A DNA stretch of 64,000 nucleotides from Thermoanaerobaculia bacterium (GTDB lineage: Bacteria > Acidobacteriota > Thermoanaerobaculia > Multivoradales > Multivoraceae). Numbering within the stretch: the stretch's first letter is position 1; each line of letters opens with the position of its first letter. Under the pieces are notes generated by a model. The model was not told where the DNA came from, made no database searches, and worked only from the letters and a program-made list of their open reading frames with translations. The stretch spans positions 1,632,001 through 1,696,000 of the forward strand of contig OY761158.1 in NCBI GenBank assembly GCA_963664405.1, given 5' to 3'. Position numbers and translations under genes: made by a program. Positions 8,089-53,249 of this stretch are shown one piece after another.

Positions 8089-9900
8089 ATGAGGAAACCT
8101 CTCGTATCGCCAAGCCTGCTGTTCGCAGCGTGTGCAGTTCTTTCAGTGGCCGCGGGGCCGGTCGTACCCCAAGCCGCATCGGGGCCCGACTTCGTTCCGG
8201 TAACCGACGCCATGCTGCAGAGCCCGAGCGACGACGACTGGCTGATGTGGCGGCGCACCCTCGACAGCTGGGCCTACAGCCCGCTAGACCAGATCAACCG
8301 CGAGAACGTGGGGGATCTCGCCCTGGTCTGGGCTCGAGGCATGACGGCCGGCATCCAGACCGGGACGCCGCTGGTCTACAACGGTGTCCTGTACATGCCG
8401 AACCCGAAGGATGTGATTCAAGCGATCGATGCGGTGACCGGCGACCTCATCTGGGAGTATCGCCGCGAGGTCCCGGACGACATCATGGGCTACCTCGGCG
8501 CCCTCGCCGAGAACAACCGCAACCTCGCGATCTACGACAATCTGATCATCGATACCAGCGTAGACGACTACATCTTCGCCCTCGACGCGAGAACGGGGGA
8601 GCTGGTCTGGGAGACCCAGATCCTCGATTACAAGAAGAAACCGGCGACTCAGGGCTCCGGCCCCATCATCGCCGACGGCAGAGCGATCTCGGGGCGCAGT
8701 TGCCGGCCGCTCGGTGGGCCGGACGCCTGTGTTATCACTGCGCACGACGCGAAAACCGGCAAGGAGCTGTGGCGGCGGCGGACCATTCCGGCGCCAGGCG
8801 AGCCTGGCAACGAGACCTGGGGTGACGTGCCCTTCGAAGAGCGAAAGCACGTCGGCAGCTGGACGGCGGCGAGCTACGATCCCCAGCTCGAGCTCATCTA
8901 TATGGGAACATCGGTGACTTCGCCGGCGCCGAAGTTCCTTCTGGGTGGCACTAATCTCAAGCACCTCTACCACAACTCGACCCTCGCGCTCGAGGTAGAT
9001 ACCGGGGAGATCAACTGGTACTACCAGCATCTCAACGACCACTGGGATTTAGACCATCCCTTCGAGCGCATCCTGGTCGACACCGCGGTGTCGCCCGACC
9101 GCAATGAAGTACCGTGGATCAATCCGCGTGTGCAGGCCGGTGAGGTCCGCAAAGTCATGACCGGGATTCCGGGCAAGACGGGTGTGGTCTACACCATCGA
9201 CCGCGAGACCGGGGAGTTTCTGTGGGCTACACCGACGGTGCCGCAGAACGTAATCAGCAACATAGACGGGGCCACGGGCGCCGTGACCGAGAACGAAGAA
9301 ACGGTCTTCACTGAGTTGGGGCAGACAATTCTGGTCTGCCCCACCTATGCAGGCGGTAGGGGCCCACAGGCCGGCGCTTACAGTCCGCTGACGAATATGA
9401 TCTACAACCCCTTACGCAACGCTTGCGCGCAGATGACTTCTGACCTTGCCGGGCGACTCCCCATCTACGCGCTCGACGCCACCCACCAGATGGCACCCGG
9501 CTTCGAGCTGCTGGGAAATGTTCGGGCGGTTTCGGTGGAGACCGGCAAGACAGCTTGGATCTACGAGCAGCCGGCCGCCACTATGTCGATCTTCACCAGC
9601 GGGGGCGGGCTGGTGTTCGGCGGGGACGTGAAGGGACGTTTCCGGGCCTGGGACCAGGAGACAGGCGAGGTGCTGTGGGAGGTCAATCTCGGCGCGATGG
9701 TCTCCGGCTATCCAATCAGCTATGGCGTCGACGGACGCCAATATATCGTCGCCTCGACCGGTAAATCGGTGCAGGGAATGAACGTCGAGGGGATCACGCC
9801 CACGGCCACCACGGTAACCGGCGATTCCTCCAGGGGCCTGCCCTCGAGGTACCCGAACAACCTCTTCGTATTCGCACTCCCTCGGTCAGCCAGTGAGTGA
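8089..9900 (+). CDS. PQQ-dependent dehydrogenase, alcohol-dehydrogenase-like beta-propeller
   Basis: AGGAG SD then ATG 8089; YSPLDQINRENV, WARGM, DHWDLD, GDVKGRFRAWDQETGEVLW, PISYGVDGRQYI. Confidence 0.88.
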   Translation: MRKPLVSPSLLFAACAVLSVAAGPVVPQAASGPDFVPVTDAMLQSPSDDDWLMWRRTLDSWAYSPLDQINRENVGDLALVWARGMTAGIQTGTPLVYNGVLYMPNPKDVIQAIDAVTGDLIWEYRREVPDDIMGYLGALAENNRNLAIYDNLIIDTSVDDYIFALDARTGELVWETQILDYKKKPATQGSGPIIADGRAISGRSCRPLGGPDACVITAHDAKTGKELWRRRTIPAPGEPGNETWGDVPFEERKHVGSWTAASYDPQLELIYMGTSVTSPAPKFLLGGTNLKHLYHNSTLALEVDTGEINWYYQHLNDHWDLDHPFERILVDTAVSPDRNEVPWINPRVQAGEVRKVMTGIPGKTGVVYTIDRETGEFLWATPTVPQNVISNIDGATGAVTENEETVFTELGQTILVCPTYAGGRGPQAGAYSPLTNMIYNPLRNACAQMTSDLAGRLPIYALDATHQMAPGFELLGNVRAVSVETGKTAWIYEQPAATMSIFTSGGGLVFGGDVKGRFRAWDQETGEVLWEVNLGAMVSGYPISYGVDGRQYIVASTGKSVQGMNVEGITPTATTVTGDSSRGLPSRYPNNLFVFALPRSASE

Positions 9901-9943
9901 CGCGTCTGAAAGTACGGTCCGACCACCCGTATTACCGCACATC

Positions 9944-11140
9944 ATGACTAGACCAGCGTTTCCAAAGTTCGTGTGCAATAGCTCGAGGTCATTCTGTTCG
10001 CTGGCCAGGCGCGCCGACGCAGGCATATTGGGCAATATGTCGAGGAGGCGAAACGCCGTCAGCGGACAGAAGGGGCCGAGATATGTGCGCGAACTTTGGA
10101 AACGCTCGTCTAGCGCACAATTGAAAATCAACGCCGTGCTCGTCGCACTAGCCGCCTGTTTGACCGCCGGGCTGCTGCACGCTGCAGATCCCATCACCAC
10201 AGACACCCACCGCTTCATCGAAATTAGAAACGGGATTTACCTGGCGCAAACGACGGCGTCGGTGTTCAACAGCAACTCGTTGGTTGTCGTCAACGACCAG
10301 GATGTCGTGGTGGTGGATTCCCATGCCACTCCGGCCAAAGCACGCGATCTCGTCGCTTCGATCAAGGCGATCACCCCGAAGCCCGTGACCGCGCTGATCA
10401 ACTCCCACCATCATTGGGACCACACCAACGGCAATCAGGAGTTCGCCGACATTCCGATCATCGGCCATGAGTTCACCTATATGAAACTGGCGATCGCGCC
10501 GCGTGAAGAGGTCAGCCGTCACCGTGGTCTCAGCCGCCAGAATGGAGAATTGGCTCAGTTGAGGGAACAGATCGCGTCCGTCGAGGACGACGAGGAGAAA
10601 AAACGACTCGAGACCCAAGCGGCGGTGCTCGGCGCGCACCTTGGCGACTTCGACGAGGTCGATCCGACGCCACCCAATGTGACTATCAGCGACCGCATGA
10701 CGCTCTATCGAGAGAAGCGCGAGATCCAGGTAATCTTCACTGGGCGCGCTCATACAGGGGGTGACGTCGTCGTCTACTTTCCCCAGGACAGGCTCGTCTT
10801 CACCGGCGATATGGCGCTAGGAGGGCCGTCATTCATGGGCGACGGGTTCGTCGATGAGTGGCCCCAGACCATGGAGAATCTCAAAGCGCTCGATTTCGAC
10901 ATCTTCGTTCCTGGCCACGGCAAGCCGGTCACCGACTTGAGAAGAATCGATCTCGTTCAGGAGTACTACAGAGACCTTTGGAAGAAGACGGCCGCCAAGC
11001 ATGCCGCAGGGGTGAGCCCGGAGGAGGCTGCCCGCACCATCGACATGACCAATCACACCGAGATCCCCATCCCAGAGCCGGGCGTGAACCTCCTGGCAGT
11101 AGAACGGATGTACACTCGGCTGGAGAGGCTCCAGAAATGA
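9944..11140 (+). CDS. MBL-fold metallo-hydrolase (cyclase-like), secreted, with an in-frame MITE after codon 2 (alternative start TTG 10121)
   Basis: NSHHHWDHTNGN, AHTGGD, FTGD and VPGHG motifs; hydrophobic signal stretch INAVLVALAACLTAGLLHA. Confidence 0.85.
   Translation: MTRPAFPKFVCNSSRSFCSLARRADAGILGNMSRRRNAVSGQKGPRYVRELWKRSSSAQLKINAVLVALAACLTAGLLHAADPITTDTHRFIEIRNGIYLAQTTASVFNSNSLVVVNDQDVVVVDSHATPAKARDLVASIKAITPKPVTALINSHHHWDHTNGNQEFADIPIIGHEFTYMKLAIAPREEVSRHRGLSRQNGELAQLREQIASVEDDEEKKRLETQAAVLGAHLGDFDEVDPTPPNVTISDRMTLYREKREIQVIFTGRAHTGGDVVVYFPQDRLVFTGDMALGGPSFMGDGFVDEWPQTMENLKALDFDIFVPGHGKPVTDLRRIDLVQEYYRDLWKKTAAKHAAGVSPEEAARTIDMTNHTEIPIPEPGVNLLAVERMYTRLERLQK
9948..10113. mobile_element. 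Palindromic MITE family 1, copy A (162 bp between duplicated TA in CTAG)
   Basis: 24-bp TIR CTAGACCAGCGTTTCCAAAGTTCG / CGAACTTTGGAAACGCTCGTCTAG (1 mismatch); second copy at 30917..31082. Confidence 0.9.
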
Positions 11141-27107: not shown

Positions 27108-27140
27108 TTGCAATTAGGGACTTGTGCGCCATAATTGCAA
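27108..27140. promoter_or_regulatory. Inverted-repeat operator candidate upstream of AAA/DUF4143 gene 1
   Basis: TTGCAATTA-N15-TAATTGCAA, AT-rich, ending 2 bp before the ATG. Confidence 0.55.
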
Positions 27141-27142
27141 GG

Positions 27143-28327
27143 ATGATTCCGCGTCGATTGACAGATCTTCTCGTAGAAAGGCTGCGAGACTTCCCAGCCG
27201 TCGGTCTCCTCGGCCCACGGCAGGTCGGTAAGACCACACTCGCTCGACTCTTGACTGTGGAACAGACCGCGAAGAAGACCGCGTATCTCGATCTCGAGAA
27301 TCCGGTCGATCTGGAAAAGCTGGAGGACACTGCAGGCTATCTCGAGTTTCGATCCGATCGACTCGTGATCTTCGATGAGGTACAGCGAATGCCCGGCCTC
27401 TTCGAGAGACTGCGGGGTGTTATCGACGAGCGAACGTTCGATGGCCAACCCGCCGGCCACTTTCTTCTGCTTGGATCAGCCTCGATCGACCTCTTGAGGC
27501 AATCATCGGAGAGTCTCGCGGGGCGGATTGCCTACCTCGAACTGGGGCCGCTCGACATCACCGAGATCGACTCGGACGACGAGGCTGACCTCTGGATCAG
27601 GGGAGGATTCCCCAGAAGTCTGCTGGCTGCATCCGACCGCGCCAGCGCCACCTGGCGGGAAAGCTTCATCACCACCTATCTGGAACGCGACATTCCCCAA
27701 CTCGGACCGCGGATACCCGCCGAGACACTGCGGCGATTCTGGACCATGCTCGCTCACCGCCAGGGAGCGCCACTCAACGCTGCCGAGCTTGCCCGTAGCC
27801 TGGCGGTGGACGGCAAGACCATAGCGCGGTATCTCGACCTCATGGTGGACCTTCTTCTCGTCCGCAAGCTACAACCTCTGCATGCCAACGTGGGCAAGCG
27901 GCTGGTAAGGTCTCCCAAGACCTATCTTCGCGATAGCGGCCTGGTACACACACTCCTCCGCCTGGACACGTTCGAGGAAGTCGTAGGGCATCCGATTGCC
28001 GGCGCGAGCTGGGAGGGACACGTAATAGAGAACCTGCTCCGCGTTGCGCCTTCGCGCACCGAGGCGAGCTTCTACCGCACATCGGCGGGAGCAGAGGTCG
28101 ACCTCGTGCTCGACCTTCCGGGTTCTCGACGCTGGGCGGTCGAGGTGAAGCGCGGCCGGGCACCCAGCGTCTCGCGCGGCTTCCACAACGCCCTCGAGGA
28201 CCTCCAGCCGGATAGAGCCTTCGTCGTCCATTCAGGTGCCGATCGTTACCCCAAAGGCGAGAACATCGAGGCCATTGGCCTAGGCGACATGGCGAAAGAG
28301 ATCGTCGCCACCTTCGAGAGCCGATAG
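27143..28327 (+). CDS. AAA+ ATPase (AAA_14) with DUF4143 domain
   Basis: GPRQVGKTT Walker A, IFDEVQR Walker B, LLGSAS, ESLAGR, RGGFP, SPKTYLRDSG, EVD...AVEVK. Confidence 0.92.
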   Translation: MIPRRLTDLLVERLRDFPAVGLLGPRQVGKTTLARLLTVEQTAKKTAYLDLENPVDLEKLEDTAGYLEFRSDRLVIFDEVQRMPGLFERLRGVIDERTFDGQPAGHFLLLGSASIDLLRQSSESLAGRIAYLELGPLDITEIDSDDEADLWIRGGFPRSLLAASDRASATWRESFITTYLERDIPQLGPRIPAETLRRFWTMLAHRQGAPLNAAELARSLAVDGKTIARYLDLMVDLLLVRKLQPLHANVGKRLVRSPKTYLRDSGLVHTLLRLDTFEEVVGHPIAGASWEGHVIENLLRVAPSRTEASFYRTSAGAEVDLVLDLPGSRRWAVEVKRGRAPSVSRGFHNALEDLQPDRAFVVHSGADRYPKGENIEAIGLGDMAKEIVATFESR

Positions 28328-28408
28328 GACTCGCCGAGGACAGCGAAGCGTGCGACCCCGACCGCGCGACTCGGCGCACCATCGACCATCATCTTCGAAT
28401 CTACTCAA

Positions 28409-28439
28409 TGAAAAATGGGAATGACATTCCCGATTTTCA
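28409..28439. promoter_or_regulatory. Inverted-repeat operator candidate upstream of AAA/DUF4143 gene 2
   Basis: TGAAAAATGGGAATG-A-CATTCCCGATTTTCA imperfect palindrome 15 bp before the ATG. Confidence 0.5.
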
Positions 28440-28454
28440 GCTATAGTCTCACCC

Positions 28455-29603
28455 ATGATCCGGCGGACCCTTCACAAGCGGTCTATTGAGGAGCGCCTCC
28501 GACGAAGTCCAGTGGTGGGCCTCCTCGGCGCTCGCCAAGTCGGGAAAACGACGCTCGCACGGGAGATCCTCGGTGGCCGCAAGAAGGTGCATTGGTTCGA
28601 CCTCGAGCTCCCAGCCGACCGGGCTCTCCTCGCGGACGCTCAACTGGCATTGCAGGATCTCAGAGGCCTGGTAGTTCTCGACGAGATTCAGCACCGGCCG
28701 GAGATATTTCCGTTGCTGCGAAGCCTGGTCGATCGCCGGCCTCTGCCCGCTCGCTTCCTACTCCTTGGTAGCGCTTCACCATCGCTTCTCCGACAATCCT
28801 CGGAGAGCCTAGCCGGAAGGATCTCGTACTACACGCTTCCGGGGTTGGCCGTCGAGGAGGTAGGAGTCAGCGAGCTGGACAGACTTTGGCTGCGTGGCGG
28901 CTTCCCTCGCTCCTTTCTCGCAAATAGCCACCTGGCCAGCAACCAATGGCGTCGAGACTTCATCAGAACTTTCGTCGAGAGGGACCTGGCGCAGCTTGGA
29001 ATCGAGATTCGGTCGAGCGTCGCTCATCGATTCTGGGCGATGCTAGCCCACTACCACGCACAGACCTGGAACGGTTCAGAGCTGGCACGGGCTTTCGGAG
29101 TGACCCACAAGACGACTCGACGTTACCTCGATGCCCTGACGGCGGCGCTGGTCATCACTCAGCTCAGGCCCTGGTTCGCCAACATCGGAAAGCGTCAGGT
29201 CAAGGCCCCGAAGGTCTACATAACGGACTCTGGACTCTTACACAGTCTGCTCGACATCAATGACCGGCGAGGGCTCGAGCGGCATCCGAAGGTGGGCGCC
29301 TCCTGGGAGGGATTCCTTCTCAAGGAGACGATTCAAGCTCTGCGAGCCGAGGATGAAGAATGCTACTTCTGGGCTACGCACACCGGAGCAGAGCTCGACC
29401 TCCTCTGGGTGCGGGGCCGGAAACGCTGGGGTTTCGAGTTCAAACGAACTGTTACTCCGCGCCTGACCCGGTCGATGCATGCCGCGATGGAGTCACTCGA
29501 TTTGCAGCGTCTCTTTGTCGTCCATGCCGGCTCGGAAACCTTTCCCATGCACAAGAAGGTCACAGCGATCGCAGCATCGAGGCTACTAGACGACCTGCCA
29601 TAG
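28455..29603 (+). CDS. AAA+ ATPase (AAA_14) with DUF4143 domain
   Basis: GARQVGKTT, VLDEIQH, ESLAGR, RGGFP, APKVYITDSG, ELD...GFEFK. Confidence 0.92.
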   Translation: MIRRTLHKRSIEERLRRSPVVGLLGARQVGKTTLAREILGGRKKVHWFDLELPADRALLADAQLALQDLRGLVVLDEIQHRPEIFPLLRSLVDRRPLPARFLLLGSASPSLLRQSSESLAGRISYYTLPGLAVEEVGVSELDRLWLRGGFPRSFLANSHLASNQWRRDFIRTFVERDLAQLGIEIRSSVAHRFWAMLAHYHAQTWNGSELARAFGVTHKTTRRYLDALTAALVITQLRPWFANIGKRQVKAPKVYITDSGLLHSLLDINDRRGLERHPKVGASWEGFLLKETIQALRAEDEECYFWATHTGAELDLLWVRGRKRWGFEFKRTVTPRLTRSMHAAMESLDLQRLFVVHAGSETFPMHKKVTAIAASRLLDDLP

Positions 29604-29644: not shown

Positions 29645-30648
29645 TCAATTAACACCGGCCGCGTTCATCTCTAAAGCCCCAGTGGCCGTACCGGGCATCT
29701 CCCCTCTCACTCTCTCGCGGTCGAGCCTGAGGCCTGTCGATCTGGAGAACCAATCCCGGGTAAGGCTCCGAGGGATGTCGTCACCGGTTCGCCGCATCCA
29801 GTCCGCCAGCACCTTCTTCAATTCCTGATGCACGCTTTCGAAGGCTTCATTCCCGATCAGGTTCGCCAGCTGAAGGCTGTCCTTCCGACAATCGAACAGC
29901 TCCTCGGCGGGACGCGGCGCCAAGAATGTGTCCGCCTGGGCGGCTGAAAGGGACCCTGCTTCGCGTCGCTCGACCAGCGCCCGGTGGGAGTCGCTCCTGA
30001 CCGAATCAGCCGGCCCCTGATTGGCGAATTGCGGCCGACCGTTGAGCACATACATGTGCTCCCTGGTTCTCACCATGCGTTCGTAGGCTTCGTGATCATG
30101 CCAGTTGTGCTCGGCCAAGACGTACTGCCTGATCGACTCATCAGGGCTATTCAGGATTAGCCTGAAGCTCGACCCCTGAAAGGTGCGCGGCTTCTCGACG
30201 CCGGCGATGTCGAGGATGGTGGGAGCGATGTCGATCGGAGATCGAAACCACTGCGGAGGATGTCTCCCATGTGCCACTTGCCGGCGTGCCCGGAGTAGTA
30301 GCCGGCCGCCTTCAATTGATTGGCAATGCTCGGGAAGTCGACGGCAGGCTCGGTGTGGAGCTCCGCGGCGCCGGTATTGTGGGGATAGCGTCCGGTCAGG
30401 ATGCTGATCCGGCTCGGGCTGCACGAGCTGGTGGTCAGGAAAGCGTTGGTGAACTTCACCCCTTCCGTGGCGATCCTGTCGATATTCGGCGTTTGAACGA
30501 TCTCGTTGCCGTAGGCGCCGATGTCGTTCCAACCGATGTCATCGGCGATGAAGACGATGAAATTGGGTCGTTCCGGCCTTGCCTGCTCAGCAGATGCAAT
30601 CAGAGTCATGACCAGAAGAAAACGAGAGAATCGCTGACTGCGTCTCAC
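29645..30648 (-). pseudogene. Sulfatase (N-sulfoglucosamine-sulfohydrolase-like) with internal deletion and frameshift
   Basis: One frame has ADDIG, CSPSR and AGKWHMG; after about 30240 another frame gives IDIAPTILD...EELFD; the central PH/SDNG segment is missing. Confidence 0.8.
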
Positions 30649-31232
30649 GGTTGGTCTCCCGCCGTTATCGCTGCCAGAAAGTGCGCCGGCGAGCTGACGG
30701 TGACCTCGGACATCTTGAAGTCCTTCACATTTCTCGTCAGGATGATGTCGGCAGCCACCGCTTTGCCTGCACTCGCGACGACAGCATCCTCGAAGTCACG
30801 GATTCTCGACGACGTGGCGTCCTCGAGCACACTGCGATTGACCGGTGCGACTTCGAGGATCGAGAGCAAGACACTGACATGCTTTCGAGCTTCTCGTCTG
30901 CCAGCCGCCTTCGTACCTAGACCAGCGTTTCCGAAGTTCGAGTCGCCTAGCTCGAGGTCATTCTGTTCGCTGGCAAGGCGCGCCGACGCAGGCATATTGG
31001 GAATCTGTCGAGGAGGCGCAACGCCGCCAGCGGGCAGAAGGGACCGAGATAGGTGTCGCGAACTTTGGAAACGCTGGCCTAGGTAGAAGATCGTGGTGAC
31101 GGAGGTGGCGCAGACGTAGCCCCGCAGCGAGCCCTCTTCCGCCATGGAAAGCACCTGCGAGGACGAGGCTGAGAAAGGCTCGCGATCCAGGAGAACGTCG
31201 AGCAGAACATCGGTATCGAAAAGTACGTTCAC
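30645..31232 (-). CDS. vapC: PIN-domain toxin carrying a 54-aa in-frame MITE insertion
   Basis: VLFDTDVLLDVLLDREP, DFEDA, ILTRNVKDF; removing the 162-bp element restores TTIFYLGTKAAG and about 141 aa. Confidence 0.85.
   Translation of the reverse strand: MNVLFDTDVLLDVLLDREPFSASSSQVLSMAEEGSLRGYVCATSVTTIFYLGQRFQSSRHLSRSLLPAGGVAPPRQIPNMPASARLASEQNDLELGDSNFGNAGLGTKAAGRREARKHVSVLLSILEVAPVNRSVLEDATSSRIRDFEDAVVASAGKAVAADIILTRNVKDFKMSEVTVSSPAHFLAAITAGDQP
30917..31082. mobile_element. Palindromic MITE family 1, copy B (162 bp between duplicated TA in CTAG)
   Basis: CTAGACCAGCGTTTCCGAAGTTCG ... CGAACTTTGGAAACGCTGGCCTAG; colinear with 9948..10113. Confidence 0.9.
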
Positions 31233-31465
31233 CCGTACTTCTTCTCCAAGTGACCTCGGTAGTCATCTCGGTTTACTTCAGTGCCACGGAGCACCCCCTT
31301 GAGGCGGGATACACGCGGGGAGAGAGCACGCTTTCGGGGCTCGCCATCGAGAAGCTCGAAATACTCCGCAACCACCTGCGAAAGCGACTTGCCGGCCCGC
31401 TTCGCGTGGCCCTTGGCCGCCTCTATCAGCTCCTCGTCCATCCTGAGAGTCAGCTTGGTCTGCAT
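31229..31465 (-). CDS. DUF6364-like ribbon-helix-helix antitoxin
   Basis: MQTKLTLRMDEELIEAAK..GKSLSQVV; overlaps the PIN start by 4 bp. Confidence 0.82.
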   Translation of the reverse strand: MQTKLTLRMDEELIEAAKGHAKRAGKSLSQVVAEYFELLDGEPRKRALSPRVSRLKGVLRGTEVNRDDYRGHLEKKYG

Positions 31466-31466
31466 A

Positions 31467-31497
31467 TGACGTACATCCTTGCCACAAGTATACGTCA
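31467..31497. promoter_or_regulatory. TA operator palindrome
   Basis: TGACGTA-N17-TACGTCA directly upstream of the antitoxin start. Confidence 0.55.
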
Positions 31498-31584
31498 GGT
31501 ATGAGCCGAGTCGCTACGCGGAACCGCAGATGCAGACCATGTGCTCCGTGACACCGCTCGACAAGGGCTCCGGCTCCCCGAGAA

Positions 31585-33081
31585 TCAGGCCGCGGCAATA
31601 TCCGGCTTGAAGATGTCCACGGGAACGTCGTTCGCCTGCCGAACACCAGGGGTGCTTCGCCCTTCGCGCACGTACTTTTCGAGAAGAGCCACCAGTTCTC
31701 GCACCACCTCGGGCCGGCGCGCGGTGAGGTTCTCGGTCTCACCGATATCGACACTCAAGTCGTAGAGCTGCATCGCCGGGCGATCGGCCGGCTGGTTGGT
31801 GAAACCACCGGAGTCGGCACAGAGCGACAGCTTCCAGTTGTCTTTTCTGATCGAAAAGTAACCCTTGCTGGAGTGGTGGACAACCGCCTCACGAAGAGGC
31901 TCCTCCGCGGTTCCGAGAAGCGCCGGCAAGATGCTGACGCTGTCTTCGGCCGCCCCGCTCGGGAGCTCGGCACCGGCGATCTCCGCACAGGTCGCGAGGA
32001 GATCGGTCAGGCACCCCAGCTGGGCAGCTCGAGATCCCGCTTTGACCTTCCCCGGCCACCGCACGATGAACGGGATCCGATGCCCACCGTCCCAGATGTC
32101 GCCCTTGTAACCACGAAATTGGGCGCTGGGGAAATGGCCCTTGGCCTCCATTTCGGCGGCGCCGATGTAGTGCGCACAGCCATTGTCACTGGTGAAGATG
32201 ACCAGGGTGTCGTCAGTGAGTCCTTGCTCCTCCAGAGCTTGGAGCACCTCTCCCACCGCGGCATCGGTCTGCATGACGAAATCGGCGTATTCGTGACCGA
32301 GACTGCTCTTGCCCTTCCACTCCTCCGTCGGGGCGATCGGCGTATGAGGGGAATTGAACGGAAGATAGAGAAAGAAAGGTTGCCCCTGCTTGGCGAGCGG
32401 TCCTCGTTCATTGACATAGCCGACGGCCTTCTCGGTTATGGCAGGAAGCATCTCGACCGCATCGATATCGGCGATCACCCGGCCGTTCTCCATCAGCGCC
32501 CGCATCGAGCGAGCGTGCTCGAAGCCGAAGAAATAGTCGAAGCCTCGGGTGAGCGGCCCCTCGGTTATCGCGGTCCCGACCGGGAAGGGTCCGTTCTCCT
32601 CCAGAGTCTCGGTCGGATGGGTGAGGTGCATCCCCAGATGCCACTTGCCAACGATCCCGGTGTGGTAGCCCTGACTTTGTAGAAGAGATCCGACCGTCAG
32701 TCGGCCCTCGGCGATCAGAGGATCCGCGTCCGCGGTGTCGACAACCCCCTCCTGCAACCGCGTTCGCCAGGCGTATCGACCGGTCAAGACGCCGTAGCGG
32801 GTGGGAGAGCACACCGCCGACCCTGAATGGGTGTCGGTGAAGACCATGCCCTGACGAGCCAGACTGTCGATATGGGGCGTCGGGATCTTTCCTCTCTCGG
32901 GGTTGAGAACGCTGACGTCACCGTAGCCGAGATCGTCGCAGATGATGTAGACGATGTTTGGAAGCTTGCCTTCTCCGGCTGCCGTCGCCGTGCTGGGGGC
33001 GAGCGCGCCGACTCTCAGCCTTCCACTGAAGACAGAGAGGCTGCCAATCGCCGACATCAACAAGAAATCTCGTCTATCCAT
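31585..33081 (-). CDS. Arylsulfatase A-like sulfatase, Tat-exported
   Basis: DRRDFL, DDLGYGD, CSPTRYGVLTGRY, GKWHLG, TSDNG, GGHRIP. Confidence 0.92.
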   Translation of the reverse strand: MDRRDFLLMSAIGSLSVFSGRLRVGALAPSTATAAGEGKLPNIVYIICDDLGYGDVSVLNPERGKIPTPHIDSLARQGMVFTDTHSGSAVCSPTRYGVLTGRYAWRTRLQEGVVDTADADPLIAEGRLTVGSLLQSQGYHTGIVGKWHLGMHLTHPTETLEENGPFPVGTAITEGPLTRGFDYFFGFEHARSMRALMENGRVIADIDAVEMLPAITEKAVGYVNERGPLAKQGQPFFLYLPFNSPHTPIAPTEEWKGKSSLGHEYADFVMQTDAAVGEVLQALEEQGLTDDTLVIFTSDNGCAHYIGAAEMEAKGHFPSAQFRGYKGDIWDGGHRIPFIVRWPGKVKAGSRAAQLGCLTDLLATCAEIAGAELPSGAAEDSVSILPALLGTAEEPLREAVVHHSSKGYFSIRKDNWKLSLCADSGGFTNQPADRPAMQLYDLSVDIGETENLTARRPEVVRELVALLEKYVREGRSTPGVRQANDVPVDIFKPDIAAA

Positions 33082-33335: not shown

Positions 33336-33572
33336 ATGTCGCGCTTGACCATCACGTTGCCGGACGAGCTTCATCGCGCCCTCAAAGAAGCGGCGGCTAG
33401 CCGCCGTCGCACGATCGGCGAGTTGGTCGCGGAGAGCCTCGAACGCTACGGGATCAAGTCAGCCGAATCTGGGCGAGAGCTGGTGGCCCGAGCCCGGTCC
33501 CATAGCCGCCTGGAAGAGAAAGAAGCGCTCGGGATCGCGATCTCCGAGACGCGGCTCAGCCGCTCCCCGTGA
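33336..33572 (+). CDS. CopG/RHH antitoxin
   Basis: MSRLTITLPDELHRALKEAAA; GTGA overlap with the PIN gene. Confidence 0.8.
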   Translation: MSRLTITLPDELHRALKEAAASRRRTIGELVAESLERYGIKSAESGRELVARARSHSRLEEKEALGIAISETRLSRSP

Positions 33573-33994
33573 GGCCACCCTGGGCAGTGGTCGATACCAA
33601 CGTCGTCATTTCCGGCCTGCTCACCGGCGCTCGGGCCTCCCCGACTCCACGCATTCTCGACGCGATGCTGGCCGGAACCCTGAGTTTTCTCCTATCGGTG
33701 CCCCTGCTCTCGGAGTACGGGACAGTGATGCTACGACCTCGCGTCGCAGCTCTCCACGGTCTCGACGAAAGAGCGATCGATCACATTCTGGAGGCCCTCG
33801 CTCGAAATGGCGCTCTCCGCCAGCCGCTCTCGATTCCTCCAGTGCCGGGTGACGCCGGCGACCAGCACCTCTGGGAGCTTCTCGCTCGCGAGCCTGGCGC
33901 CGTGCTGGTGACTGGCGATCAGGGTCTCCTGTCTTCTCCCCCACACTGGGCATCGGTCTCGACACCGGCAGCCTGGATCGAGAGGTCGCCGTGA
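33569..33994 (+). CDS. PIN-family putative toxin
   Basis: VVDTNVVISGLL, DAGDQHL, LVTGD. Confidence 0.85.
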   Translation: MRPPWAVVDTNVVISGLLTGARASPTPRILDAMLAGTLSFLLSVPLLSEYGTVMLRPRVAALHGLDERAIDHILEALARNGALRQPLSIPPVPGDAGDQHLWELLAREPGAVLVTGDQGLLSSPPHWASVSTPAAWIERSP

Positions 33995-34059: not shown

Positions 34060-34308
34060 ATGATTCGGATCAACATCGCCGAGGCGAAAACCCACCTGTC
34101 GCACTATCTCGAGAGTGTCGAGAAGGGCGAGGTCGTTGTGCTTTGTCGGCGCAACATCCCAATCGCCGAGATCCGACCGATCCCACAGCCACCCTCGCAG
34201 CCCAGGCCGGTTGGAATCGACCGCGGAATGACCCTTCCTCCCAGCTTCTTTGAGCCTCTACCCACGGATCTACTGGATGCGTTCGAGGGCGGTGAGGCGT
34301 CCGAGTGA
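34060..34308 (+). CDS. Phd/YefM family antitoxin
   Basis: INIAEAKTHLSHYLESVEKGEVVVLCRRNIPIAEI. Confidence 0.88.
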   Translation: MIRINIAEAKTHLSHYLESVEKGEVVVLCRRNIPIAEIRPIPQPPSQPRPVGIDRGMTLPPSFFEPLPTDLLDAFEGGEASE

Positions 34309-48434: not shown

Positions 48435-49024
48435 TCGATGCCAGCAGAGCGCCTGGTACGATTATCGCATTCATCTGAGCATAAAGGTCATTCTGACAGG
48501 CAGTCCGCTTCGAGCCGAACCCGGTCTCAAGCGAGACTGATGGTAGAAACCTCAGGAGAAAAGAAATGATGCAAGCTGCCACTCTCAGGTCAGTTCTCTG
48601 TCTCTTCGCCATCGCCTGTCTGGTTCAGGCGCCGCTCTTGGCGGACGGCCCGCAGACAGGAACCATCGACGGTACGGTGACCGATGCCCAGGGCGGCGGC
48701 CTGCCCGGCGTCACCGTCACCCTTACCGGACCTCAGAACACTAGAACGGAAATGACCGACGCCGAGGGAGACTACCGCTTCGCCCTGCTCCAGCCTGGGG
48801 CCTACGTGGTGAACGCCACTCTCGAGGGTCTTGGCACGGCCGAGCAGGCCGTCTCCCTCGAAATGGGGCAGCGCCACGACGTCGCGCTCACTCTGCAGGC
48901 AGCCACCTCCGAGACCATCACCGTCACCGCCGAGGCGGCGATGATCTCCAAGTACGACACCGGCGCCACCTCTGCGATCCCGGAGGAGGCACTCGAGAAC
49001 GTCACCTTCACCACGCGCAACTAC

Positions 49025-49102
49025 CTTGGGTTCAAGGGGTCGTCGCAACGTTGCCTTGGTGAGCAGAGTGTACAAACTCATCGAAGACTTCGGCAGGGGT
49101 TC
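49025..49102. mobile_element. Right-end fragment of the IS30-family element
   Basis: Near-identical to 49517..49594 (CTTGGGTTCAAGG.GTCGTCGCA...). Confidence 0.85.
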
Positions 49103-49516
49103 TGAGCGGTCACGGTTTCGTGGACACCAAGTTAAGCCCCATCGGGGCAGTTCCTATTCTGCATCAGTTCGGGTAGTCAGCTTCGGACGAGGCTGTGCGA
49201 GGTTCGGGGAGCGCAGCCTCCCTTCGGATCCGACCGCCGGTCGCGCGTGAGTTCACGCTGCCCCTTCGAAGGCCTCGGGGCTCAGGAATCCGAGCGTCGA
49301 ATGCTGGCGTCTCAGGTTGTAGAACACTTCGAGGTAAGAAACCGCTTCGTCGTGAGCTCGCTGACGAGTCTCGAAGGGTCGGTCCCAGACCTCGGTCTTG
49401 AGACTGTCGAAGAAGCTCTCCAAGACCGCATTGTCATAACAATTTCCGACGCCGGACATGCTGCAGCGAAACCGCAGCTCAGCCAGCCGATCCTGGTAAG
49501 CCTTCGAGGCGTACTG
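49103..49516 (-). mobile_element. IS3-family remnant (terminal IR plus 3' part of orfB)
   Basis: TGAGCGGTCACGGTTTCGTGGACACC end; QYAS...SMSGVGNCYDNAVLESFFDSLKTE...FYNLRRQHSTLGFLSP. Confidence 0.85.
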
Positions 49517-50968
49517 CTTGGGTTCAAGGAGTCGTCGCAGCGTTGCCTTGGTGAGCAGAGTGTACAAGCTCATCGAAGACTTCGGCAGGGGTTCTCCAGC
49601 CGAGGGTCTTGCGGGGTCGGCCGTTGAGTGCGAGCGCGACCGCGGCGAGGTCGTCGCAGGAGTATCTGACAAGGTCGGTGCCCTTCGGGAAGTACTGGCG
49701 TAGTAGTCCGTTGGTGTTCTCGTTGGTGCCCCGCTGCCAGGGGCTGTGCGGGTCGCAGAAGTAGATCGCGAGGCCGGTATCGACGCGGAGTTGAGCGTGT
49801 TGAGCCATCTCGGCGCCCTGGTCCCAGGTCAAGGACCGGCGGAGCTGCTCGGGCAGCGTGGTGATTGACACCGCGATCGCGTCACGGACGGCTTCGGCGC
49901 CGTGCCCGGCGAGGGCCGGCCCGTTCTTCACCCTCGATTCGGTCCCGTGCCCTTCCATGCGGGGCAGGTGCAGCAGCATCGTGAACCGCGTAGTGCGTTC
50001 GACGAGGGTCCCGATCGCTGAGCTCTCGAGCCCGACGATCAGGTCGCCTTCCCAGTGACCCGGCACGGCCCTGTCGCCGGCTTCGGCGGGGCGTTCGCTG
50101 ATCATGATCTCCGGAGTTACAAATTTCTTGCCTCTCCCCCGGGTTCGCGCATGCGGCACTCGTAGCGCTCGCCCGGTTCGCAGGCACGCGACGAGCTCGC
50201 GTTTGAGGGCTCCTCGACCTTGGATGTAGAGCGCTTGGTAGATCGCCTCGTGAGAGATCCGCATCGACTCATTATGGGGGAAATCAATCCGAAGCCGGTT
50301 CGAGATCTGCTCCGGACTCCAGGATTTCGCCCAACGCCGATCCTGGCGACGGCCGTGCCGACGGCCGATCCAACGCACATCCGGACCCGGCACCAGCTCC
50401 CCGTCAGGCCTTGCGATCACGCCGGCGAGGCGGTTCTGCACGTACTCACGCAAGGCATCGTTCGCGGCAAGCTTGGAGACCTTCGGACGGCTGGCGCGCC
50501 GCTCCGCGTGCCACTGCGCAGTCGTGGCCCGATAAGTTACGGCACGGCTGCGAGTCGCCGCGTTGCGGCGCAGCTCCCGCAAAATCGTCGACGGTGAACG
50601 ACCCAGGCGGCGAGCGATCTCACGTACCCCAACATGCTGAGCGTGAAGGATGGCGATCTCTTCACGCTCGGCGAACGACAGATAACGCCCCGACACCGGA
50701 GCCAACGAGATAGGTCGCATTCCACCAGCTTGCCTGAACCATCTCGACCCGACAGCCGGCGACACCCCAGCCTCTGTTGCGGCGTCCTCGCTGGACGCCC
50801 CACGAGCGATCGTCTCCCAGAACCGGATCCGGTCCTCGCGCCGCGCTGTCGAGGGCCGGCCAGGTGACCGCATCTGGCCACGCATCGCTCGAATCGCACC
50901 CTGACACTTGCCAACTCCCATCGAAACACCTCCATCACGAGATGTTGCGACGACCAGTTGAATCCGCC
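49517..50968 (-). mobile_element. Complete IS30-family element
   Basis: Imperfect IRs GGCGGATTCAACTGGTCGTCGCAAC / CTTGGGTTCAAGGAGTCGTCGCAGC enclosing the transposase. Confidence 0.9.
49524..50921 (-). CDS. IS30 family transposase
   Basis: LSFAEREEI..IARRLGRSPSTILRELRRN, GHWEGDL, TWDQGAEM, CDPHSPWQRGTNENTNGLLRQYFPKG. Confidence 0.95.
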   Translation of the reverse strand: MGVGKCQGAIRAMRGQMRSPGRPSTARREDRIRFWETIARGASSEDAATEAGVSPAVGSRWFRQAGGMRPISLAPVSGRYLSFAEREEIAILHAQHVGVREIARRLGRSPSTILRELRRNAATRSRAVTYRATTAQWHAERRASRPKVSKLAANDALREYVQNRLAGVIARPDGELVPGPDVRWIGRRHGRRQDRRWAKSWSPEQISNRLRIDFPHNESMRISHEAIYQALYIQGRGALKRELVACLRTGRALRVPHARTRGRGKKFVTPEIMISERPAEAGDRAVPGHWEGDLIVGLESSAIGTLVERTTRFTMLLHLPRMEGHGTESRVKNGPALAGHGAEAVRDAIAVSITTLPEQLRRSLTWDQGAEMAQHAQLRVDTGLAIYFCDPHSPWQRGTNENTNGLLRQYFPKGTDLVRYSCDDLAAVALALNGRPRKTLGWRTPAEVFDELVHSAHQGNAATTP

Positions 50969-53249
50969 TACAACACGAGTGTCCAAATGATGCCGGGCTT
51001 GGTAACCCGCAGGAAGCAGGACTTTGGCCGCCCTTCAGTTAACGGAGGCATCAGCACCGAGCTCGGCGTCTTCATCGACGGCGTCGACGTCAGCATGCCC
51101 CGTCGTGGCGGCGAGCTGCAATTTCAGATCCCGTCGACCGTAATCACCAATACCCGGATGGAAACGTCGGGTTTCGCCCCCGAGTACGGCCGCGCGACCA
51201 GCGGTGTCATGAACTCGACGATCAAGACCGGCACCAACACCTTCCACGGCGATTTTCTCTATATCGGCCAGAACCCGAAGTGGCGGTCCGAGGACTGGCT
51301 CGGGATCGAGCGTCCTGACGATCAGATCAACAGCTTCGAGGCCGGCCTCGGTGGGCCGATCTGGCGCGACAAGGCCTGGTTCTTCGCTTCCTACAACGAA
51401 CTGAATGACAACCGGCTCGACCGAACGCGGTCTGGCGACACATTCGATGTCACTCGCTCATCAGAACCGCTCATCGGCAAGGTGAACTTCCAGCCCGGGA
51501 GCCGCCATCAGGTCGCGGTGACGGCGATCGACTCGCCGTCCTCAGCGATCGGTGCCGGGGGAGTCGGCGACCAGTACGCCGTCATGACCTTTCCGATCAA
51601 CAACAGGATCCAGACCGGGACCTGGAGCTTCGCCATGACCAGCTCCGCGTTCCTCGAAACCAAGCTGGCCAACCGCGAACAGGTGGTGGGACGCGTTGCT
51701 GCCCCCCCCGCCCCGATCATCCCCGGCGTGTCTTTTGACGATCCCAACGGCAACGACTTCCGCTACCAAGATCTCAACGACGGTTTGCGATACAACGGTC
51801 CCTCGATACGCCTGGGCGCTGGGTTCAACGACTATCCGCGCGATCAGGCGAATGCCTCGGTGACCCTGTTCAAGGGAAATCACGAGCTCAAGGGCGGCGT
51901 CGACTTCCAGGACGTCACTTTCAACAACCTGACCAGCATCGAGACCGAGTTTCGCGGCCGTGGTTTCTGCCGAGAGTGCACCGGAGGCTTCCTCGCTCCG
52001 TCCACCAAGCGGGTCTTCGAGATCGGCCCGCCGGTCTCGATGAATAGCCTTATGAGTGCAGCTTATGTCCAGGACCGGCTGGACGTCGGTGACAAGCTGA
52101 CCTTCAACGTGGGGCTGCGCTACGACGAACAGTGGATCGACAACGACCTCAACGAGCGAGTCAACGAGTACAGCGAGTGGGCGCCGCGCGCAACCGTGGT
52201 CTACGACATCAACGCCGACGGCAGGCTGCTGGTGCGCGGCAGCTTGGGGCGCTACTACCACAACATCGGCCTCGGTGTCGTCTTCACGGAATTCACCCGC
52301 GGCAACAACGGTGAGAACATCTACGACCAGTTCCTCTTTAACTCTGCGACCGGGTTTTACGACCGCTTTCAGCGCCACGTCGAGCCGGTCGCGGGTGACG
52401 CCATCTCGGGCATCGTGCCCCACTACAAAGACGAGGCCTCGTTGGGCTTCGACTGGCAGTTCGCCGACAACTGGATCTTCACCTCGCGCTTCACCGTAAG
52501 CGAGATTGACAACATCTTCCACTCCAGCCTTCAGTACGACGAAGCTGGCGCAGTCGTCCGCGATCTGCGCAACTGGCCCAACAACACACGTGAGCATCAG
52601 GGTCTCACGATGAGGGTCAACCGAGCGTTTCGTAACAACTGGTCGATGAACGCCAACGTGAGTTTTCTCCCCACCGACGGCACCATCGATTCCATCACAG
52701 ACACTTCCGATCACAATGAAGCCATGGGTGGCTGCACGCTGCCGGGAGGAGGTGGCCTTTGCAACGTCACCAGCACATCCCTTTGGGACGGAGCGCTCGC
52801 GGTGGACAGGGATTACTTGGTCAACCTCGTCGGCATGAAGCGTTGGGTGTTCGGCAAGCATGACGTCATGACCAGTGCTTTCTTCCACTATTCCGCCGGT
52901 GAGGCCTGGGGATTGGCGCCCAGAGCGAATGTCTTTCACCCGGTGTCCGGACAGAGAGTCCGTACTACGGGTCGCCTCGAAGCGAGGGACGCCAATAGCC
53001 TCGAGGACTCCTACACCCTCAGCTTGAATGCGACCTACCAGTTCCCGATCGGGGGTAGGTTTCAGGGCATTATCGGCGCTGAGGCCTCCAACGTCACCGA
53101 CGAGTCGCACCAGGTCCGCGTCAACACACGGAACGGCAACCTGACCACTGGGCTCGATGCTTTCACTTTTCCGCGGGAGTTCCGCCTCAAGCTCGGTTTC
53201 AGGTTCTAAGCACGCCGAGACATAGATCGGTTTAGCTCAGATTCCGAGA

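Follow-up and report, generated by a model that had tools for sequence, protein, structure and literature searches.

A putative IS630-type miniature inverted-repeat transposable element read as 54 codons of a vapC-like PIN_3 toxin gene in a Thermoanaerobaculia bacterium

A stretch of 64,000 nucleotides from a Thermoanaerobaculia bacterium (Acidobacteriota; assembly GCA_963664405.1, contig OY761158.1, positions 1,632,001 to 1,696,000; called the window hereafter) carries a gene for a VapC-like PIN_3 toxin that contains a 160-bp palindromic MITE (miniature inverted-repeat transposable element). The described system closest to it by mechanism is RUP, a pneumococcal MITE that inserts at TA and has ends resembling those of the insertion sequence (IS) IS630-Spn1, its proposed mobiliser (PMC2229807; this source, PMC10969869, PMC3184786 and PMC2170065 are cited throughout for the passages drawn on). 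The Rickettsia palindromic elements (RPEs), about 150 bp long, lie in frame in conserved protein genes and are read through; of the 44 R. conorii copies close to half lie within genes, and not all of them are TA-ended (PMC10969869, PMC2229807). The Correia/NEMIS elements of Neisseria and the ERIC sequences of enterobacteria are MITEs as well, bounded by terminal inverted repeats and by TA on either side, and the RNA hairpins of Correia elements are targets of RNase III (PMC2229807, PMC3184786). Open frames fused in frame to genes have been described for the 107-bp Correia form, ERIC, RPEs, and a 168-bp repeat of Yersinia (PMC2229807, PMC3184786), and the Coxiella QMITEs supply further examples (PMC5896051). 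A 2024 review calls in-frame MITE fusions 'not unusual' and singles out the RPEs for frequency alone (PMC10969869). In-frame fusions outside Rickettsia, of the RPE-like sort that a preliminary description of the locus inferred here, are already on record.

Like RUP, the element found here (copy A) is small and non-autonomous, has IS630-like ends, and has inserted at TA. We set the two apart by description: RUP is 107 bp long, belongs to Firmicutes, and is mainly intergenic or within IS elements according to the passages cited, whereas the family of copy A is 160 bp long and occurs in Acidobacteriota-like genomes, both its ends copy one IS end (that on the 3' side of the transposase gene), and one of its phases is open on both strands. 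With the RPEs it shares a palindromic structure that is read through in frame as extra residues. Unlike them, again as compared by description, it has a known parent IS family (the RPE passages name none), its TA is always duplicated, only 2/8 copies are clearly in frame, and its host lineage is not Rickettsia, the closest copies among the matches listed being in metagenome-assembled genomes (MAGs) of Acidobacteriota. Correia/NEMIS and ERIC resemble it in their terminal inverted repeats with TA at both ends, but these carry integration host factor (IHF) sites or promoters, whereas a scan for sigma-70-type promoters found none in our element; moreover, the passages cited name no transposase with matching ends for them, and the host phyla differ. 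As in IS630 and ISY100, TA is duplicated and CTAG preferred, and the ends of the MITE match those of elements with an IS630 transposase, but the MITE lacks a transposase and its interior is unrelated to the IS. The host gene in turn recalls VapBC modules in its PIN_3 toxin, in a nearest fold that is VapC, and in a small upstream gene with a 4-nt overlap, but this upstream gene belongs to DUF6364 and not to a named VapB family, and the toxin has a 54-residue insert. On sequence grounds, the element is by mechanism and membership an IS630-type MITE (IS630/Tc1-mariner kind), and by outcome it resembles the RPEs.

Our reading of the locus, to which we assign a probability of roughly 0.85, is that an IS630-type MITE moved by cut-and-paste into a CTAG of a vapC-like PIN_3 gene and is read through as 54 residues, which probably weaken the toxin. 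A literature search for MITEs, Acidobacteria and IS630 together returned nothing beyond a broad survey preprint (10.1101/2024.01.18.576219), known from its listing. This survey reportedly covers MITEs in 183,232 genomes, and the family described here might already be listed there.

The interrupted gene and the element within it

The gene and the element comprise the following features, given in window positions:

30645..31232, minus strand: PIN_3 (VapC-like) toxin open reading frame (ORF), 195 residues including the 54-residue insert; GTG start; stop included
31083..31232, minus strand: PIN part before the insert, residues 1-50; PF13470 positions 2-48, 42.5 bits; predicted local distance difference test score (pLDDT) 94-98
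30921..31082, minus strand: insert codons (54), residues 51-104, in the host frame and stop-free; mean pLDDT 39-49 over residues 61-100
30645..30920, minus strand: PIN part after the insert, residues 105-195 and stop; PF13470 positions 52-115, 36.7 bits; pLDDT 92-98 over residues 111-190
30920..31079, no strand assigned: MITE copy A, non-autonomous palindromic element of 160 bp whose two ends are of the IS630 transposase-3'-end type
30918..30919, no strand assigned: left TA target-site duplication, within CTAG 30917-30920
31080..31081, no strand assigned: right TA target-site duplication, within CTAG 31079-31082

The ORF matches Pfam PF13470 with 78.2 bits (cut-off 27) in two stretches that are split by the insert, and the 50-residue N-terminal and 91-residue C-terminal pieces each exceed the PIN_3 cut-off separately. 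Since the two matches cover profile positions 2-48 and 52-115, the insert lies between positions 48 and 52 of the PIN_3 profile. The junction reads ...TTIFY / 54 residues / LGTKAAG..., in agreement with the preliminary description, and excision of the insert yields FYLGTKAAG, to be compared with a family consensus of FYLxRKAxG. The protein without the insert would have 195 - 54 = 141 residues, in line with the PIN protein of about 141 residues proposed earlier. The search for PIN homologs gave 2014 relatives, the best 120 of which were listed and 119 of these were not the window protein; the 119 are 137-179 residues long, against 195 in the window. The 54 residues are missing from 15/15 aligned homologs, and the two longest homologs owe their length to C-terminal tails, so that PIN homologs natively lack the segment. 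In the 16-sequence alignment, which includes the window protein and in which invariant residues are therefore kept by definition, 27 columns are invariant, D12, D16, T46, T47, D146, E148, D149, and N168 among them. The nearly invariant D6 and D171 are also present in the window protein.

The element is 160 bp long and has no transposase gene. As first described, it is a palindrome between duplicated TA dinucleotides, each within a CTAG site, and its inverted arms of 41 nt are 85% complementary. The length of 162 bp originally given to it holds when one duplicated TA is counted, the element proper being 160 bp. It is these 160 bp between the TAs together with one TA that make an insert of 162 bp or 54 codons, and the minus-strand ORF does run through all of them without a stop in the host frame. 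As RNA, copy A is predicted to fold into a single long hairpin of -96.8 kcal/mol, compared with -56.15 +/- 4.53 for 200 dinucleotide-preserving shuffles (z = -8.97), 0 of which folded as well. Both ends of two copies in the window carry a 19-nt end motif, making four occurrences against 0.06 expected, and 0/100 shuffles reach four. A search of Rfam with 30700..31300 (E up to 1) returned nothing but MIR839, whose 33.7 bits are below the gathering score of 200; we rejected this sub-threshold assignment as a generic long-hairpin match that indicates no family. Comparison of the element with plasmids and with phages (blastn, 11-nt words) gave no match in either, and a scan of 30500..31700 for sigma-70-type promoters and for terminators found one promoter-like site, outside the element, and 0 terminator-like sites.

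Parent family, target site, reading frame, and other copies

A scan of genome contigs with a 23-nt end motif in IUPAC code recovered at least 21 loci, and locus counts given below are among the 21 loci listed. A full-length transposase ORF adjoins the motif in eight of them (L004, L007, L009, L012, L013, L014, L016, and L019). This ORF encodes 382 residues, has its 3' end by the motif, and is 81-100% identical to the L009 ORF across the eight loci. The L009 ORF matches the NCBIfam model 'IS630 family transposase' (NF033545) with 222.7 bits against a cut-off of 100 and contains Pfam DDE_3 and helix-turn-helix (HTH) domains, and the full-length elements measure about 1.28 kb between their inverted ends. 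The IS630-type transposase with matching inverted repeats that had been anticipated does exist, with about 28 nt in common.

The MITE can be aligned at either end with the transposase-3' end of the IS (L009, L014) over about 28 nt, whereas the transposase-5' end departs from the MITE ends after about 9 nt. Past the terminal 24-28 nt, no similarity between the MITE interior and the IS was detected at an E-value limit of 1e-3. Since ends of the same type flank an unrelated interior, the MITE is built from two copies of one IS end and is not a simple deletion derivative. The other 16 of the 21 loci have only the terminal 24-28 nt in common with the MITE. Related elements on rhizobial plasmids carry the annotation 'IS630 family transposase', and the occurrence of transposases that are 81-100% identical in diverse hosts points to recent horizontal spread of an IS630-family element among soil bacteria. 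Six further loci (L003, L006, L008, L017, L011, and L021) have the same 24-nt end with other interiors and no intact transposase. The first 80 nt of L003 and L006, which belong to one MAG, are identical, and L006 and L021 retain weak transposase remnants; the six probably represent either IS copies in decay or further non-autonomous families with the same ends.

TA stands on both sides of 6/6 full MITE copies. The base before TA, which was left free in the search pattern, is C at 26/28 ends (22/24 in the loci listed and 4/4 in the window), while the G after TA was fixed in the pattern and is thus not independent evidence. Because locus L020 is flanked by CTA...TAC (CTAG on one side, CTAC on the other) and L018 by TTAG, the duplication comprises TA alone, with CTAG as a preferred setting. 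Transposition preferentially to the TA in 5'-CTAG-3' has reportedly been described before, to go by the title of the 1991 article of Tenzen and Ohtsubo. TA duplication with a preference for CTAG, as these flanks show it, is textbook IS630-family behaviour. Elements of this family, including ISY100 and IS630, duplicate TA (PMC2170065).

The element plus one TA measures 162 bp in 6/6 full copies, a length divisible by three that leaves the downstream frame intact in every case. All six phases were translated for the six full copies, giving 12 strand-copies per phase. The phase used in the PIN gene, [xTA][Gxx], which starts at the G after TA, is open in 12/12 strand-copies and hence on both strands in 6/6 copies; the second phase, [xxT][AGx], is open in 5/12, and the phase that reads TAG in 0/12. 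An intragenic CTAG is never in the TAG phase, so just two phases are possible within genes, and if these are equally frequent, simple arithmetic on 12/12 and 5/12 predicts that about 70% of intragenic insertions are read through. Consequently, given this length, open phase, and CTAG target, a stop-free in-frame insertion in the PIN gene is the expected outcome and no striking coincidence. The weight first laid on this state is therefore misplaced, for it follows from 162 = 3 x 54, from a phase open in 6/6 copies, and from a TAG phase that is impossible in genes. Among dinucleotide shuffles (2000 per copy), 17-27% had the phase open on one strand and 3-6% had it open on both.

Copies A and B are the two copies in the window, and further copies were seen in Acidobacteriota MAGs. 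The second copy is:

9951..10110, no strand assigned: MITE copy B, 160 bp, with TA at 9949-50 and 10111-12; a PQQ-dehydrogenase-like ORF (ending at 9900) lies on one side and a metallo-beta-lactamase-fold gene on the other

The two copies (30917..31082 and 9948..10113) are 89.8% identical. Copy B starts 49 bp past the stop of the PQQ-dehydrogenase-like ORF, and its setting is ambiguous: either it lies between genes, the metallo-beta-lactamase-fold gene then starting at a TTG 8 bp downstream, or it sits in frame behind the second codon counted from an ATG at 9944, an option that exists because that phase is open in copy B. The start of the metallo-beta-lactamase-fold gene (9893..11140, plus strand) is uncertain, and ORF callers can extend it through copy B to 415 residues, with an N-terminus that is false or MITE-derived. 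With copy B removed, translation from the ATG at 9944 would yield MTSAQLKINAVLVALAAC..., which could plausibly be a signal peptide.

Elsewhere, MITE copies occupy five of the 21 loci (L001, L002, L010, L015, and L020). Those most similar to copy A, L020 (95.8%) and L002 (94.6%), are on one contig of an Acidobacteriota MAG; L010 and L015, from a Vicinamibacteria MAG, are about 80-82% identical to it, and L001, which is ended by the contig edge, 73%. The uncut copies L002, L010, L015, and L020 all consist of TA + 160 bp + TA. At a distance of 230 bp, L002 is accompanied by a partial second copy (2390..2496) that is 86% identical over 103 nt. L020 interrupts a sulfatase signal peptide in frame, reading MRTLTV / element / GLICLVALALSAC, with a Pfam Sulfatase domain downstream, and L002, L010, and L015 are intergenic. 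In L001 (160..534), TA and the first G of the element form the TAG stop of a CutA1 gene; an element that begins with G and lands in the TA of a stop codon re-creates a stop. A third copy in the source genome can be deduced from P0133, a protein of 214 residues that has a peptide of the other element orientation close to its C-terminus and whose longest contig equals that of the window protein in length (6,780,313 nt), and P0135, an epimerase, has an element-derived tail at its C-terminal end. In this small sample, the eight copies with known context comprise two that are clearly in frame (PIN and the L020 sulfatase), two that are ambiguous (copy B and P0133), one at a stop codon (L001), and three that are intergenic. 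The suggestion that copy lengths would be multiples of three stood up in 6/6 full copies, and clearly truncating copies number 0/8.

A peptide profile was built from six peptides in the orientation of the PIN gene and searched exhaustively, with an E-value limit of 0.001, against 1,835,955,588 representative proteins. It gave 13 matches, the window's own protein included; nine of the other 12 were examined and are mostly ORFs of 48-105 residues. Pfam assigned a family to 0/6 of the matching proteins scanned. When proteins of 96-2000 residues were compared with the insert peptide in a word-based search, only the window's own protein came up, and the profile of the other-orientation peptide matched three proteins of at least 96 residues in a shared-word search, which is less sensitive. 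In the metagenome ORFs P0130 and P0131, the element-derived sequence contains a unit of about 27 residues repeated in tandem, suggestive of variants in which the interior has expanded.

Neighbouring genes

The PIN gene is flanked on both sides by genes that it overlaps by 4 nt. Upstream lies:

31229..31465, minus strand: 78-residue gene, presumed antitoxin; Pfam DUF6364, 79.9 bits (cut-off 27.3)

This gene also shows a weak match to the YlcI/YnfO N-terminal family, at 21.9 bits and under the cut-off of 30, and it overlaps the PIN start by 4 nt. Its role as a putative antitoxin is presumed from position and size alone. Downstream, the PIN stop overlaps by 4 nt the GTG start of a sulfatase gene (29645..30648, minus strand), which is present in two overlapping frames, a Sulfatase N-terminal part at 30157..30648 and an SGSH_C part at 29645..30532. 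This split sulfatase is either a frameshifted pseudogene or a sequencing error. Directly before it, a tandem gene pair (27122..29603, plus strand) encodes proteins that each have AAA_14 and DUF4143.

A second toxin-antitoxin pair is found 2 kb off (33336..33994, plus strand), in which a 78-residue ribbon-helix-helix-like gene overlaps an uninterrupted PIN_3 gene of 141 residues (33569..33994). We considered the latter as a paralogous empty site and rejected it, since it has no significant similarity to the interrupted PIN (E = 2.5). The pair is followed by a small ORF (34060..34308, plus strand), which from its sequence pattern we take to be Phd/YefM-like, and the region as a whole forms a small cluster of toxin-antitoxin modules between sulfatase genes. 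Further away, a TonB-dependent receptor (48566..53209) is seemingly split by an insertion sequence into a CarboxypepD_reg part (48566..49105) and a barrel part (50777..53209). Between these parts lies an opposite-strand ORF (49524..50921) with HTH_38 and rve domains, which is presumably IS30-like.

Probable consequences for the toxin

The AlphaFold model of the 195-residue protein has a mean pLDDT of 83.0; residues 1-50 and 111-190 score 92 or more and insert residues 61-100 score 39-49, and the insert is accordingly predicted to be disordered and to stray from a PIN fold that is otherwise intact. The model of P0002, an uninterrupted natural homolog (mean pLDDT 96.3), shows one helix over residues 42-56, so an insertion after residue 50/51 splits a helix and not a loop. 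It falls between the invariant Y50-L51 and a nearly invariant glycine (G111 in the window protein, G57 in P0002) that comes six residues on in uninterrupted homologs. A sequence search of the PDB with the PIN alignment gave 0 matches at E up to 0.001. In a fold search with the model, the best PDB matches were VapC chains of VapBC complexes (3zvk_B, E = 6.1e-05; 5ecw_A, target TM-score 0.77).

In the course of events that we propose, the MITE would have inserted by cut-and-paste at the TA of a CTAG in the PIN_3 gene of a two-gene toxin-antitoxin module, duplicating the TA. The ribosome would read through it as a 54-codon insert, stop-free in the [xTA][Gxx] phase on both strands, the TAG phase being impossible in the gene. 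The toxin would thereby gain 54 residues interrupting a conserved helix, and its activity would most likely be weakened or abolished; the toxin is, we infer, likelier to be weakened than improved. The insertion may persist since loss of a chromosomal toxin would cost nothing with the antitoxin gene intact, and the long mRNA hairpin may reduce expression of both the toxin and the overlapping sulfatase gene.

Several observations weigh against this account. The nearest uninterrupted PIN homolog is just 61% identical at the protein level, and the PIN gene is without decay, with no frameshift, no stop, and its invariant residues intact; an intact gene fits a recent insertion no better than it fits a protein that tolerates the insert and still functions. 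The hosts of the full-length IS are other organisms, mostly represented by Alphaproteobacteria MAGs (the remaining hosts are one Steroidobacteraceae, one Xanthobacteraceae, and one Candidatus Sulfotelmatobacter, an Acidobacteriota MAG with L004), and tblastn found no related IS630 transposase in the 64-kb window (best E = 0.45). No promoter-like or terminator-like site was seen in the element. AlphaFold run on the PIN alignment would give a PIN fold around almost any insert and is silent on activity, and it is by inference only that we regard the toxin as impaired.

Silencing at the RNA level is an unlikely alternative account of the same insertion. Here the hairpin in the toxin mRNA would be cut by a double-strand-specific RNase or would stall ribosomes, uncoupling the expression of antitoxin and toxin and lowering that of the downstream sulfatase. 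The predicted hairpin (-96.8 kcal/mol, z = -8.97) fits such a role, the 4-nt overlaps of the PIN gene with the antitoxin gene and with the next gene make it probable that all three are co-transcribed, and hairpins of Neisseria MITEs are processed by RNase III (Delihas 2007, PMC2229807). Note however that 30500..31700 contains 0 terminator-like sites and that the sulfatase is split over two frames, so that there may be nothing left to regulate.

We consider it quite doubtful that the MITE family evolved translational harmlessness in free-living Acidobacteriota, such that it repeatedly enters genes and adds a flexible 54-residue module as the RPEs do, the PIN toxin staying folded with changed regulation. 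Under this proposal, the TA-G ends would re-create a Leu or Val codon in genes and a TAG stop in stop codons. Slightly less probable still is RPE-like remodelling, in which the family would be selected to live in coding sequences and the 54 residues would form a tolerated or useful surface module on an active toxin, altering for example antitoxin binding or substrate choice. In favour of remodelling, the insert length is a multiple of three in 6/6 full copies, one phase is open on both strands in 6/6, including two copies that are just about 80% identical, and among 2000 shuffles of each copy such openness on both strands is reached by no more than 3-6%. However, the strands of a palindrome are not independent, which makes the single-strand figure of 17-27% the fairer estimate of chance, and six copies of common ancestry are not six separate trials. 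The sulfatase signal peptide of L020 provides a second clear in-frame case, P0133 and P0135 have element-derived residues near or at their C-termini, and every invariant residue is present in the PIN gene. Against this, only 2/8 copies with known context are clearly intragenic and in frame while three are intergenic, and a mere 13 of 1.84 billion proteins match the peptide, mostly of 48-105 residues and with a Pfam family in 0/6 scanned. Furthermore, the insert disrupts a conserved helix and not a loop, and it is modelled as disordered. Of the preliminary description's RPE-like remodelling element there remains the read-through, which is like that of the RPEs; the counts (2/8 clearly in frame, Pfam 0/6) do not bear out a systematic remodelling of proteins, and the toxin may, as also proposed there, be modulated or silenced.

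Derivation from the IS5 family with a 4-bp CTAG duplication, in place of an IS630-type element with a TA duplication, is barely credible and was rejected: CTAG does flank copies A, B, L002, and L015 on either side, as a 4-bp duplication would leave it there, but the flanks of L020 (CTAG/CTAC) and L018 (TTAG) leave TA as all that the two sides share, full-length elements with the same ends encode an IS630-family transposase, and TA within CTAG is, by the title mentioned above, a reported IS630 target.

Overall, the IS630-type insertion in the PIN_3 gene is a real but fairly ordinary event, in which read-through is the usual outcome of the length and sequence of the element. It cautions that in-frame MITE insertions are not per se evidence of adaptation, since the arithmetic of 160 + 2 bp and the CTAG target explain the frame. 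For annotation, it means that the 195-residue 'PIN protein' is a 141-residue toxin plus a transposon, and that gene starts by other copies may be miscalled. The analysis also provides a dissected IS630-derived MITE in Acidobacteriota-like genomes, with its parent IS type named. If the toxin is active with its insert, the locus would define a natural permissive site within a PIN helix.

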